NCBI GenBank assembly: GCA_045587985.1
Contig: JAZNDG010000087.1
Coordinates: 1 to 58,043, forward strand
Direction: 5' to 3'
Length of the DNA: 58,043 bases
From: Eubacteriales bacterium
GTDB taxonomy: Bacteria; Bacillota; Clostridia; Oscillospirales; CAG-272
A program made the translations under genes and the position numbers. Below, piece by piece: positions 17,424 through 45,828 of the stretch. Each line of letters starts with the position of its first letter. The stretch's first letter is position 1. The notes beneath the pieces are model-generated. The model was not told where the DNA came from and made no database searches. It worked only from the letters and a program-made list of their open reading frames with translations.

Positions 17424-17428
17424 AAAGG

Positions 17429-17590
17429 TGTGATAGAGGCGCGTATGACAAGAGTACCGCAAGGCCTTTTGCCCCTGCCAAAGGGGTGCCTGTGGGAAAG
17501 GGGAGTACGCCGAAGGGGGCTTTTGGCAGAGCTTTCCTGGCAAAGGGAATAACATCCTGTTTGCTGTCGCGTTTGCGGAGTGCTATCGCC
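17429..17590 (+). promoter_or_regulatory. Lysine riboswitch (L-box) aptamer
   Basis: gatAGAGGCGC...GAAAGG...GCCGAA...CTGTC...GGAGTGCTATC; P1 gatag/ctatc; lies upstream of lysine biosynthesis genes. Confidence 0.92.
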
Positions 17591-17600
17591 TTTTGGGATG

Positions 17601-41790: not shown

Positions 41791-41867
41791 CTACCCGTGG
41801 CACAGCTGGATAGCGCGCAAGACTCCGACTCTTGAGGTCGTAGGTTCGAATCCTATCGGGTAGGCCA
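41791..41867 (+). tRNA. tRNA-Arg(CCG)
   Basis: Acceptor CTACCCG/CGGGTAG, D-loop with GGA (A20), anticodon arm CAAGA-CTCCGAC-TCTTG, GGTTCGAATCC, encoded CCA. Confidence 0.96.
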
Positions 41868-41908
41868 AAGCAAAAAGGGGCACCCTCGTGGTGCCCCTTT
41901 TTGCTTTG
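41866..41908 (+). terminator. Terminator after tRNA
   Basis: caaagcaaaaaggggcacc-ctcgt-ggtgcccctttttgctttg, 19-bp arms. Confidence 0.85.
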
Positions 41909-41951
41909 CTCTATCATGAAGGGCGACCTAGCGCGAGAGAAGACGAGCGCG

Positions 41952-42040
41952 GTAGGTTCGCATACTCCGCGCAGAGCGTCCGCCCGCTTGCGAGGCGGCG
42001 GCAAGCGAGAGTATATTCGCACCCGTGCGAACATCCTATC
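41952..42040. other. Structured element bounded by the two halves of the tRNA T-arm sequence
   Basis: GTAGGTTCG-[72 nt]-ATCCTATC versus GTAGGTTCG-A-ATCCTATC in the tRNA; nested inverted repeats. Confidence 0.5.
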
Positions 42041-42065
42041 ATCGAATCATTAAAAAGGATATACC

Positions 42066-42138
42066 CAACCATTGGTTGAGTTGTTAGGGAAAAAAGTTTT
42101 TTGAAAATCTTTATAGTTGAGGATACTTATGTTATAAT
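42066..42138 (+). promoter_or_regulatory. Palindrome plus extended -10 promoter
   Basis: CAACCA-T-TGGTTG (42066-42078); TGTTATAAT (42130-42138). Confidence 0.55.
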
Positions 42139-42176
42139 ACAGTTGAACGTTGACACATCATCGTGAGGTAAGTAGA

Positions 42177-43604
42177 ATGAAAACAATTGACCCTCAAAAA
42201 ATCAAAAGTTTAAGAATTCGTCAAGGATTATCCCAGCAAAAGCTGGCGCGGCTTATTGGTATAAGTGATCGGGCGATTTCAAAATGGGAGTTGGGGTACT
42301 CGCGACCTTCGGCTAACCATCTCATTGCTTTAGCACAAATTTTGGATGCCAACGTGATGGACTTTTTGCCCAACTCCAACGCGGTCAATAAAGAATCTGC
42401 GCAAGGAATGGAATCACTTACTGAACTTTATAAAATCGGGAGAGGACCTTCAAGCTCGCACACTATGGGGCCGGAACGTGCGTGTAAAGTGTTTATGGCT
42501 CAGCATGCAGAAATTGATGAATTGCGAGTGATTTTATACGGCTCGCTTGCGAAAACGGGGAAAGGACACGGAACAGATCAAGTAATAAGAAAAACAGTTG
42601 CCCCGCTTCCATGTGAAATCATATTCGACTTTGTAACAACAGATATTCCTCATCCCAATACCATTGATATTATCGGATTCAAAAGCAAGGCTGAGGTAGC
42701 CAGAGCGCGAGTAATGAGCATTGGCGGCGGAAGTGTTTCGTTCGAAAACGAAAGCGTAGCGCAAACACCTTGCATATATCGTGAACACACTTTTGCCGAT
42801 ATTGCTACCTACTGTAAGGCAAATTCTCTACGTTTGTGGGAATACGTGGCAGAACGTGAGAACTCGTGCTTTTGGGAGTATATGGAACAGGTTTGGGGTG
42901 CTATGAAGCAGTCCATATTATGCGGACTTGAAGACGAGGGGGAGTTGCCCGGCGGATTATCCGTAAAGAAAAAAGCAAGGTCACTCTTTCTCAATCAGCA
43001 CATAGACGAAAGTGCGGAAACGCGCGAAAATCGTATGGTTTGTGCATTTGCATTTGCGGTTGGAGAACAAAATGCATCGGGTGAACAAATTGTAACGGCA
43101 CCCACCTGTGGTGCGGCGGGAGTACTACCCGCAGTGCTATATTATCAACAGCAAAAAAACAAATATAGCGATCGGCAAATTATACAGGCTCTTCTTACGG
43201 CGGGAATTGTTGGAAACTTGATCAAAACAAACGCCTCTATTTCCGGCGCCGAATGCGGTTGCCAAGCAGAAATCGGCAGCGCTTGTGCTATGGCAGCGGC
43301 GGCATTGGCGGAATTATTTTCACTCGATATCGACAAAATCGAATATGCTGCGGAAATCGCAATCGAACATCACCTTGGGCTCACTTGCGATCCGATTTGC
43401 GGTCTTGTACAGATCCCCTGTATTGAACGAAATGCTGTGGCCGCCATGCGCTCGATCAATGCGGTAAGCCTTGCAAGCTTTTTGTGGGATTCTCGCAAAA
43501 TTTCTCTTGATAAAGTGATTAAAGCCATGAAGGAAACAGGCAAAGACATATCAACGCGCTATAAAGAAACATCGGAAGCAGGACTTGCCAAAATTATACT
43601 TTAA
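42177..43604 (+). CDS. XRE-HTH fused to single-chain Fe-S L-serine ammonia-lyase
   Basis: [26 protein letters not shown]; then [42 protein letters not shown]...PCIERN. Confidence 0.9.
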
Positions 43605-43619
43605 AAAATAATCTTCATG

Positions 43620-43665
43620 ATTTAGCGTTGTGCTTTGGAAAACACAACGCTAAATTTGTTTTTTT
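43620..43665 (+). terminator. Intrinsic terminator
   Basis: tttagcgttgtg-ctttggaaaa-cacaacgctaaa followed by a T tract. Confidence 0.8.
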
Positions 43666-43848
43666 GTATTATGATAAAACTGCTTTATTGCAGGTGCGCC
43701 AAGGTTGTCCCTTTTGCTTTGGCCTTCTCGCTTGGGAGATGTTATTTGGCGACACACAATTTTTTCGAAACCACTTGCGGGCTGCCGTCCTCCTGTGATA
43801 TAATACGCTCATAAGGATATAAACTCGAAAAAAATGAGGAAACGCTAT

Positions 43849-44832: not shown

Positions 44833-45004
44833 GCGGCTTCCCCGGCAGGACCACCGGGATTTTGAGGCGCAATGCCCGCTTGTCGGTAAAAACGAATAAA
44901 AATATTAAAATTTGTGAACTTTTTTTGAAATTCCTATTGCTTTTTTCTGCGCGGTTTGCTATAATCTATACGTAATATTAAATAACACCATAGGAGAGTT
45001 GGGT

Positions 45005-45367
45005 ATGAAAACGCTTGGCAACATCATTTGGTTCATCTTTGGCGGCTTCATCGGAGCCCTCTGCAATTTTCTCGTCGGCTGCCTTTTGTGTGTGACGATT
45101 GTTCTGATTCCCTTTGGCAGACAGTATTTCAAGCTGGCGGGTCTTATGCTTTGGCCCTTTGGCAAGCAGGTGGATGCGGATGCAACCGTTCATCCCGTTG
45201 CCAACATCTTCTGGAATGAGCTCGGCGGCTTCGTTGCTGCGGTTCTGCATTTCGTGATCGGCATTCTCCTTTGCGTGACCATTATTCTGATTCCCTTTGC
45301 AAAGCAGCACTTTAAGCTTGCTAAGCTCTCGCTTATCCCCTTCGGCGCTGTCGTTTCGAAGGTTTGA
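45005..45367 (+). CDS. YccF-domain inner membrane protein (copy 1)
   Basis: GNIIWFIFGG; two IPF..Q.FKLA units. Confidence 0.9.
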   Translation: MKTLGNIIWFIFGGFIGALCNFLVGCLLCVTIVLIPFGRQYFKLAGLMLWPFGKQVDADATVHPVANIFWNELGGFVAAVLHFVIGILLCVTIILIPFAKQHFKLAKLSLIPFGAVVSKV

Positions 45368-45471: not shown

Positions 45472-45828
45472 ATGAAATTCATCGGCAACCTGATCTGGTT
45501 CTTCTTCACCGGCCTGCAGACTGGTCTTATGTGGATCATTCTCGGCATCATGTGGTGCATCACCCTCATCGGTATTCCCTTCGGCAAGCAGGCCTTCAAG
45601 CTTGCTAAGCTCTCGCTTGTGCCCTTCGGCAAGACCGTGAACGGCGATTTCTCCAAGCATGCCATCCTGAACCTGATCTGGTTCTTCCTCGGCGGCTTCA
45701 GCCTCTTCCTCTACTATGCCTTTGCCGGTCTGATCTTCTGCATCACCATCATCGGCATCCCCTTCGGCAAGCAGTGCTTTAAGCTCGCCAAGCTCTCGTT
45801 CGCTCCCTTCGGCGCGACCATTTCGTAA
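45472..45828 (+). CDS. YccF-domain inner membrane protein (copy 2)
   Basis: GNLIWFF; two CIT.IGIPFGKQ.FKLAKLS units; AAGGAG RBS. Confidence 0.9.
   Translation: MKFIGNLIWFFFTGLQTGLMWIILGIMWCITLIGIPFGKQAFKLAKLSLVPFGKTVNGDFSKHAILNLIWFFLGGFSLFLYYAFAGLIFCITIIGIPFGKQCFKLAKLSFAPFGATIS

Follow-up and report, generated by a model that had tools for sequence, protein, structure and literature searches.

We analyzed a window of 58,043 nucleotides (contig JAZNDG010000087.1 of assembly GCA_045587985.1, an Eubacteriales bacterium of the gut Clostridia) and focus here on one gene of it, located at 42177..43604 (stop codon included) on the plus strand, whose open frame encodes 475 amino acids (aa). The predicted product consists, in this order, of an XRE/Cro-type helix-turn-helix (HTH) domain, a 17-aa linker, and a compact single-chain Fe-S L-serine dehydratase (SDH). 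In the Pfam search, residues 9-57 (42201..42347, +) matched HTH_3 with an E value of 8e-15 (55 bits versus a cut-off of 23), residues 80-137 matched SDH_beta with an E value of 5e-22 (79 bits; cut-off, ~26), covering positions 1-64 of the 155 profile positions only, and residues 230-471 matched SDH_alpha with an E value of 1.5e-74 (251 bits; cut-off, ~26). Besides, the protein scored 392.1 bits, above the cut-off of 345.1, with the NCBIfam model TIGR00720 (sda_mono, single-chain L-serine ammonia-lyase). The HTH contains the recognition-helix region SDRAISKWE, and the enzyme body, which comprises residues 78-475 (42408..43601, +) and begins at Met78 (42408), carries the motifs SSSHT (residues 92-96), GCQAE (361-365), TCDP (403-406), and PCIERN (414-419); alignment with a solved structure, Foldseek comparison, and conservation identify it as a predicted [4Fe-4S] enzyme.

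The gene appears to be equipped with its own control elements. A Shine-Dalgarno sequence (GAGG, 42165..42168, +) lies 8 nt 5' of the ATG at 42177, and the promoter scan predicted a promoter at 42110-42138, composed of TTTATA, a 17-nt spacer, and TATAAT. Its extended -10 element, TGTTATAAT (42130..42138, +; TG at 42130-42131 and TATAAT at 42133-42138), keeps TATAAT in the promoter alignment, and its weak -35 element, TTTATA (42110-42115), belongs to a conserved block, CTTTATAGTTG (42109..42119, +), found by the same scan and alignment. This block also contains AGTTG, which may resemble a half-site of the putative operator. The latter is a 15-bp palindrome, CCAACCATTGGTTGA (42065..42079, no strand), recognized by upstream comparison and a genome scan and matching TCAACC-N3-GGTTGA at 11 of 12 positions. 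Downstream of the gene, an intrinsic terminator (43619..43665, +) has a 14-bp stem (43619-43632/43643-43656) followed by a U run, and its energy of -18.2 kcal/mol (z -4.66) was reached by none of 200 shuffled sequences. Upstream, a tRNA-Arg(CCG) gene (41791-41867, +) is followed by a 24-bp inverted repeat at 41861-41913 (hairpin at 41860-41915; -37.9 kcal/mol, z -9.9), which shields the gene against upstream transcription, and an Rfam scan of 41868-42177 gave no match to a riboswitch or leader. Domain, motif, promoter, and folding evidence hence bear out the initial annotation insofar as it described an HTH fused to a complete SDH with a promoter, a palindrome, and a terminator.

We modeled the protein with AlphaFold2 from 47 fused homologues (mean predicted local distance difference test [pLDDT] score, 79.9). 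The model gave the HTH a five-helix fold (residues 6-15, 20-27, 31-39, 46-55, and 60-63), and Foldseek superimposed this domain on the N-terminal domains of P22 c2 and SinR with target-normalized template modeling (TM) scores of 0.86-0.88, or 0.8-0.88 with C.AhdI included. No homology to the Fe-S transcription factor families FNR, IscR, SoxR, and NsrR was detected, Pfam and NCBIfam listing XRE-type HTH and SDH families only. Comparison of close pairs places the HTH under purifying selection, the ratio of nonsynonymous to synonymous rates (dN/dS) being 0.02-0.13 in eight of nine resolvable pairs and 0.36 in the exception (L025/L026; L and G numbers denote the loci and genomes of our comparison, G000 being the window's genome). 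The corresponding values were 0.03-0.16 for the enzyme body, 0.14-0.94 for the linker, and 0.05-0.07 for the window protein versus its closest relatives, all of them rough because synonymous sites are near saturation. In the linker (residues 61-77; 42357..42407, +), residues 68-75 had pLDDT scores below 50. Its sequence is variable and its length fixed, since the SKWE-to-GPSS spacing is 55-58 residues in all 32 fused genes. Furthermore, HTH and SDH distances were correlated (r 0.73), and none of 2000 Mantel permutations gave a value as high.

An apparent fusion might also arise from two genes joined by a sequencing error, or the product might start at Met78, which aligns with the start codon of unfused homologues and at which some database entries of 395-419 aa begin. 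We consider the chance of such an artefact negligible, because 32 fused genes from independent assemblies have an uninterrupted frame, the HTH shows the selection described above, and the 900 bp preceding each of 31 unfused genes contained no separate or remnant HTH (best E value, 0.75). Ribosome-binding strength, calculated as the duplex energy with a generic anti-Shine-Dalgarno sequence, was -7.0 kcal/mol at the ATG at 42177 versus -1.0 kcal/mol at the internal ATG at 42408. For most unfused genes, the start codon gave values of -5.7 to -10 kcal/mol, and across the fused genes there was no Shine-Dalgarno signal at Met78 (mean of -2.7 kcal/mol versus -2.3 kcal/mol at other in-frame Met codons). 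Translation mainly from 42408, a possibility that the initial annotation had raised, is made improbable by the absent signal there and the good one at 42177. The catalytic and the predicted DNA-binding domains are, on these grounds, parts of one polypeptide and both under selection.

The solved structure closest to the enzyme body was the Legionella type 2 L-serine dehydratase 4RQO (E value, 2.8e-78; Foldseek TM scores, 0.65/0.69; 38% identity), likewise a single beta-alpha chain with three cluster cysteines. The predicted cluster ligands C362, C404, and C415 align with the cysteines of gCq, tCdp, and pCiern in 4RQO and were invariant in all 24 fused and all 22 unfused genes examined. The counterpart of H131 in the alignment is chain position 79 of 4RQO, which corresponds to His61 once the 18-residue tag is subtracted. 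The accessible part of a study on the Legionella enzyme (LpLSD) describes His61 as the likely catalytic base (PMC12647591), and H131 is the predicted catalytic base of the window protein. The S92-T96 loop and H131 were invariant in the alignment of fused homologues, and the full set of S92-T96, H131, D134, C362, C404, and C415 was retained in 23 of 24 fused and all 22 unfused genes. The Legionella enzyme differs in lacking an HTH, in its longer beta domain, and in its C-terminal Cys458, which acts as an intrinsic inhibitor according to the same portion of that study (PMC12647591), whereas the window protein ends in ...AKIIL without a C-terminal cysteine. The gene is, moreover, the sole SDH_alpha match in its 1.51-Mb genome (estimated to be 96% complete). 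Because the catalytic and ligand residues are kept and no other gene of the genome matches SDH_alpha, the window protein is most likely still an active L-serine dehydratase. As background, the initial annotation had stated that Firmicutes usually encode SdaAA and SdaAB separately; this does not apply to the window's family, in which the usual SDH is a compact single chain of ~400 aa.

It is very improbable, in our judgment, that the SDH body is catalytically dead and works only as the serine- or cluster-binding sensor of a transcription factor. Such a role is suggested by a divergent fused clade with active-site changes and by two genomes, G201 and G205, in which an unfused SDH occurs beside or in addition to the fused copy. 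The window protein, however, retains all conserved catalytic and ligand residues, its dN/dS versus its closest relatives is low, its genome has no other SDH_alpha match, and no target besides its own promoter was found there. The divergent clade includes locus L013 (991-4997), where an unfused SDH gene is followed by a fused paralogue, L013b, and a gene for a D-isomer 2-hydroxyacid dehydrogenase. L013b is 52% identical to the window protein and retains the HTH, a perfect palindrome, and the cluster cysteines, while it carries S94I, D134A, and H131R, the last of which affects the catalytic base; all of its relatives (L055, L056, L057, L066, L070, and L072) likewise have a substitution at D134. 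The tandem looks like a split into enzyme and regulator, and the shedding of catalytic residues together with retention of the DNA-binding apparatus suggests selection on the regulatory role as such.

We then scored the palindrome TCAACC-N3-GGTTGA out of 12 within 300 bp upstream of the genes, counting non-redundant loci. At least 10 of 12 positions matched upstream of 20 of the 30 fused genes versus 2 of the 30 unfused genes, and an unfused exception, L013, sits directly before the fused paralogue L013b and has a degenerate palindrome (10/12). Control counts were 0/29 for the reversed pattern, 1/29 for DNA 300-615 bp upstream, and 0/26 for DNA past the stop codon. In an alignment of the promoters of 17 loci, only three intergenic blocks were conserved, namely, the palindrome, CTTTATAGTTG around the -35 element, and TATAAT; the palindrome is conserved despite saturated synonymous sites, and the flanking intergenic DNA is not. 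In the window's genome, CCAACCATTGGTTGA was the only site matching at least 11 of 12 positions, with 3.1 expected by composition, and 21 sites matched at 10 of 12, with 54 expected; a regulon search of this genome revealed no target beyond the gene's own promoter that reaches 11/12. The only perfect site in G111, G115, and G204 is the one upstream of the fused gene, and G201 has a second perfect site. G181 contains 12 sites with at most one mismatch (versus 2 for the control pattern), the majority within open reading frames (ORFs), and its intergenic sites precede an RsmG/GidB gene and a stand-alone XRE gene.

Taken together, these data make autoregulation through the TCAACC-N3-GGTTGA palindrome likely. 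The self-regulation proposed by the initial annotation has gained ground in that the palindrome tracks the fusion, the HTH is under purifying selection, and a second HTH-enzyme family, described below, repeats the pattern; the trigger-enzyme part of that proposal, i.e., true effector gating in the strict sense, is a possibility toward which we remain rather skeptical.

Two additional observations concern related sites. Locus L087 (G181:C37:55271-58285) encodes a stand-alone 166-aa XRE protein (P0272) with the recognition helix SSQAVSKWE, and one 11/12 palindrome and two GGTTGA/TCAACC half-sites lie ~75-150 bp 5' of its start. At L026, which has a fused gene without the TCAACC palindrome, there are at least three tandem 18-bp GCCTTTGCTAAAGACACA-like repeats with short palindromes inside, located ~70-140 bp upstream of, and extending into, the N-terminal extension of the gene; these may represent repeated operator sites or, alternatively, a repeat in the coding sequence.

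The position of the palindrome relative to the promoter was not uniform. In the window, its center lies at about -73 from the predicted transcription start, and in 12 loci of the window clade the centers lie at about -72 to -74, 5' of the weak -35 element (TTTATA). Those of L013b, L056, and L070 are at -64/-65, about one helical turn nearer. The placement at -73 is reminiscent of class I activator sites. In L029, L030, and L032, the palindrome begins 3-4 nt past the -10 element of a TTGACA-17-TAYAAT promoter and overlaps the predicted transcription start, which, as read from the sequence, is a classic repressor placement.

A second fusion of this type was found on an unrelated enzyme. The window's genome encodes, at G000:C36:30540-32159 (-), a 536-aa protein consisting of HTH_3 and a complete phosphoglucomutase/phosphomannomutase (PGM), and a second PGM_PMM gene lies on contig C55 of the same genome. 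Upstream of the HTH-PGM gene, we observed TCGCAACC-CTC-GGTTGCGA, then a AAAGTTGG block, and then TATAAT. The HTH-PGM fusion occurred in 20 of the 100 matching genomes among 151 family genomes searched. The core CAACC-N3-GGTTG of the palindrome GCAACC-N3-GGTTGC matched at 9 or more of 10 positions upstream of 17 of the 20 fused PGM loci, whereas none of the 10 unfused ones had such a site (maximum of 7 for the unfused loci), and the recognition helix VSRQSVSKWE was invariant in 20 of 20 fusions. By these comparisons, HTH-PGM is an independent repeat of the link between an HTH and a palindrome, and an N-terminal XRE tag with a sister operator appears to be a general pattern in the window's family.

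Other HTH-enzyme fusions were noticed in the course of this search. A fusion of an HTH (HTH_19/HTH_3), Cupin_2, and an AMP-binding enzyme (742-766 aa) is encoded at G000:C3:11712-13937 (+) (L094) and at L005:1543-3840, in the latter case directly upstream of a fused SDH gene; by eye, the leader of the G000 gene shows a T-box-like GGTACCGCG motif and a terminator. The window's genome also encodes an HTH_26 domain joined to a C-5 cytosine DNA methylase (L096, G000:C58:11950-13311) and an N-terminal Cro/C1 HTH joined to a Fic domain (L097, G000:C14:18446-19606).

Several points weigh against the reading of the window protein as an active enzyme that regulates its own gene through the palindrome. 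The beta domain is ~35-40 residues shorter than that of Legionella 4RQO, with a gap between query residues 139 and 159, and no characterized enzyme of the compact SDH form was found; the shortening is common to the whole compact ~400-aa SDH clade, HTH-fused or unfused, and the AlphaFold2 model still shows a beta sheet at residues 146-201. Since the operator position differs by clade (-73 versus +1), a single sign of regulation is unlikely. The HTHs of the SDH and PGM fusions are merely 31% identical, and their palindromes differ at the outer base (TCAACC versus GCAACC). Ten of the 30 fused loci lack the TCAACC palindrome: L003, L055, and L066 score 8, and L025-L028, L031, and L057 score 6-8. 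Some of the palindrome-less loci show other palindromes, e.g., TTTTGC-N3-GCAAAA, and L027 has a TTTTTGCAAAAA palindrome between the -35 and -10 elements; in four of the ten (L003, L027, L028, and L031), Thr replaces Ala in the recognition helix. Besides, homologous loci are kin, so that the palindrome counts overstate independence, and the joint loss of palindrome and HTH could partly reflect the physical linkage of the 5' region. As to expression, a search of sequencing runs for this stretch listed no RNA run that contains it, and the DNA runs listed had shares of at most 0.14. Finally, A and T runs flank the palindrome in L008, L056, L070, and the second perfect site of G201 (G201:C89) and give it the look of a terminator hairpin.

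These runs lead to the alternative that the palindrome is an insulator or terminator hairpin, or a site of another host factor, with the HTH serving oligomerization or binding elsewhere. A motif scan classed the palindrome of the window as resembling a terminator on the minus strand, and the presence of the motif upstream of the stand-alone XRE gene in G181 points in the same direction. As RNA, however, CCAACCATTGGTTGA has an energy of -6.4 kcal/mol, no better than that of shuffled sequences (z 0.06), and the arm sequence itself is conserved beyond pairing across loci with saturated synonymous sites, while the innermost pairing is broken in L009, L010, L032, and L070. In addition, the palindrome precedes the promoter in one clade but falls within the 5' untranslated region in another, and its occurrence follows that of the HTH in two enzyme families unrelated to each other. 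We therefore regard this alternative as improbable and return to the palindrome as the operator of the fused HTH.

The gene seems to have a history different from that of its surroundings. Its GC content is 0.46, versus 0.54-0.57 in the flanks, and its GC content at third codon positions (GC3) is 0.41, versus a genome median of 0.67, and ranks 15th from below among 765 long ORFs; of the 46 loci compared, none but that of the window has a gene markedly lower in GC than its flanks. Three genomes of the same genus were searched, of which G027 and G117 have unfused SDHs that are 61-64% identical and G183 gave no match, while the closest relatives of the window gene are fused (L002, 88%; L015, 83%). 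The DNA similarity to L002 spans 42066-43677 only, i.e., from the first operator base to just past the terminator, and these limits imply that the transferred unit consisted of operator, promoter, gene, and terminator. We infer that this 1.6-kb unit of foreign base composition was probably acquired horizontally as a cassette. No conserved neighbors or operon were found, the flanking genes differing among 14 loci, and DNA matches to the same-genus genomes (67-93% identical) are scattered on different contigs, so that no empty insertion site was definable. The low-GC cassette starts ~150 bp past the hairpin 3' of tRNA-Arg(CCG). As separate observations, a tRNA-like sequence was seen, by eye only, just upstream of the fused genes of L027 and L031, and an imperfect 16-nt inverted repeat (GAGAGTATATTCGCAC/GTGCGAACATCCTATC) lies at 42007-42040 of the window, in the GC-rich spacer that separates the cassette from the tRNA terminator. 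Long-ORF clusters with GC3 values of 0.29-0.40 (median, 0.67) also occur elsewhere in G000 (C67:14238-20603, C57:2244-4963, C58:11974-14082, C51:10809-12471, and C79:28553-31415); judging by composition, they are probably other horizontally acquired islands.

The fusion is by no means restricted to this assembly, a possibility that the initial annotation had also raised, and is widespread in sequence clusters, genomes, and the ESM Atlas. The architecture HTH_3 + SDH_beta + SDH_alpha was present in 103 of the 120 best database clusters (66-90% identity), the remaining 17 being unfused (395-443 aa), and in a search of genome contigs 12 of 15 homologous loci matched from residues 1-7 and hence were fused. 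Among 201 genomes of the window's family, 102 were SDH positive, 12 of these with the fusion, and a search of 81 relatives of G201 yielded 9 further genomes with it. Collections with one genome per species provided 32 fused genes (30 non-redundant) and 31 unfused genes (30 non-redundant). In the ESM Atlas, four listed clusters with 122, 157, 59, and 192 members had the HTH-SDH architecture, all of them from Bacillota where the phylum was known.

In a tree calculated from the SDH portion, one clade (SH-aLRT support, 93) united 23 fused with 10 unfused genes, and a second clade of 10 was wholly unfused. The tree required at least seven changes between the fused and unfused states, three of them forced by well-supported branches; shuffled states gave a mean of 15.7, and none of 500 shuffles was as low. 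A split ancestor with a stand-alone HTH beside the SDH was rejected, as no such HTH occurs upstream of the 31 unfused genes. The simplest reading is a single old fusion followed by repeated loss of the HTH, the order of these events not being proven. SDHs with other partners were also encountered, namely, P0142 with a C-terminal HD domain (656 aa) and P0271 with a DCC1-like thiol-disulfide oxidoreductase (844 aa); none of 20 long or atypical cluster representatives had another DNA-binding domain.

On balance, we favor, with moderate confidence, a bifunctional protein in which an active compact SDH is combined with an N-terminal XRE HTH that regulates its own gene, carried on a horizontally acquired cassette. 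The domain order and its conservation, the selection on the HTH, the retention of the catalytic residues, the association of the palindrome with the fusion, and the limits of the cassette are computational findings, whereas DNA binding, its sign, and its gating are proposals. The enzyme body would dimerize like the Legionella enzyme, as suggested by the LpLSD dimer mentioned in PMC12647591 and by the dyad symmetry of the site. Such a dimer would carry two HTHs, each on a linker of constrained length, that face the 15-bp palindrome in the promoter region of the gene, and binding there would control transcription of the gene. Substrate occupancy or the state of the Fe-S cluster near the SSSHT loop might then modulate DNA binding; gating by serine or by the cluster is plausible since the linker enters 14 residues before SSSHT and has a fixed length.

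The main rival of this proposal is a dosage homeostat, in which the HTH gives constitutive autoregulation blind to serine, iron, and oxygen, without an allosteric link to the HTH, and in which the built-in controller lets the gene work in any host after transfer. It accords with the movement of the operator-to-terminator cassette as a unit found in unrelated contexts, with the same combination of tag and palindrome on an unrelated enzyme, with the predicted flexibility of the linker, and with a precedent for enzyme-borne autoregulation, the N-terminal HTH of M.SsoII-type methyltransferases, in the accessible parts of PMC3978073 and PMC6100179. The fixed length of a linker whose sequence changes fast, on the other hand, hints at geometric coupling, and L013b loses the catalytic base but keeps the cluster cysteines, as expected if the body still senses. 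We think a pure homeostat unlikely, without dismissing it. A broader model, which we offer only tentatively, is that of a portable module in small-genome gut Clostridia, in which an XRE HTH of ~75 aa with a CAACC-N3-GGTTG operator and a promoter has been grafted N-terminally onto several unrelated housekeeping enzymes to yield transferable single-gene homeostats, with active-site occupancy or [4Fe-4S] integrity gating DNA binding in the SDH. Its examples may be the Fe-S serine dehydratase, the phosphoglucomutase-family enzyme, and possibly the cupin-acyl-CoA synthetase.

Returning to the self-regulating SDH, its nearest documented analogues are, by analogy of design, the methyltransferases M.SsoII and M.Ecl18kI. 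In the accessible parts of the respective reports, an N-terminal region of ~71 residues binds an operator and regulates transcription of the enzyme's own system, and the regulatory DNA affects catalysis (PMC3978073, PMC6100179, and PMC2760811). Both cases combine an N-terminal DNA-binding region of ~70 residues, a flexible linker, a complete enzyme, and an operator near the own promoter. The comparison concerns the general HTH fold, and the methyltransferases are DNA enzymes of restriction-modification systems, whereas the enzymes described here are metabolic, have no DNA substrate, and are associated with another operator; the window's genome also encodes the HTH-C5-methylase L096.

In comparison with stand-alone regulators, the window protein shares with SinR, P22 c2, and PuuR the N-terminal five-helix Cro/C1 HTH, a palindromic (here putative) operator, and a C-terminal domain that presumably dimerizes, but those proteins have a small sensor or oligomerization C terminus, whereas here it is a 398-aa Fe-S enzyme. 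The classic trigger enzymes PutA, BirA, and NadR, likewise close analogues, combine, in one polypeptide, catalysis with control of their own or pathway genes, and the state of a substrate or cofactor decides on DNA binding. Their enzymes and DNA-binding folds are different (ribbon-helix-helix in PutA and winged helix in BirA) and contain no Fe-S cluster, and effector gating, shown for them, is inferred for the window protein. Fe-S-cluster-dependent regulators include FNR, IscR, SoxR, NsrR, and aconitase/IRP, of which aconitase is a dehydratase-type Fe-S enzyme moonlighting in regulation. The window protein would share their logic, with an oxygen- or iron-labile cluster as the signal, only if the cluster gates DNA binding; there is no sequence relationship, and aconitase binds RNA, not DNA.

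In agreement with the initial annotation, which knew of no account of this architecture, no description of an HTH-serine dehydratase fusion was found in the literature searched, subscription journals and bioRxiv supplements being outside its reach; database records of the architecture exist under automatic names only. If confirmed, the window protein would be the first Fe-S L-serine dehydratase doubling as a DNA-binding regulator, with a predicted operator that can be tested, and if gating proves true, it would represent a new kind of Fe-S-dependent DNA-binding transcription factor made from a working dehydratase. The pattern suggests an economical way of enzyme regulation in reduced genomes without dedicated regulators and, furthermore, a way in which a metabolic gene could take its regulation along on transfer to another host. 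L-Serine catabolism is relevant to competition in the gut, as stated in the accessible part of PMC13168631, and a self-contained switch that responds to serine would also offer synthetic biology a compact part.

Three other features of the window deserve mention. A lysine riboswitch (Rfam RF00168, 72.7 bits) lies at 17426-17593 (+), and two adjacent small ORFs lie at 44999-45367 and 45472-45828 (+), the first of which matches the Pfam YccF inner-membrane domain. Judged by its translation, the second looks like a paralogue of the first.

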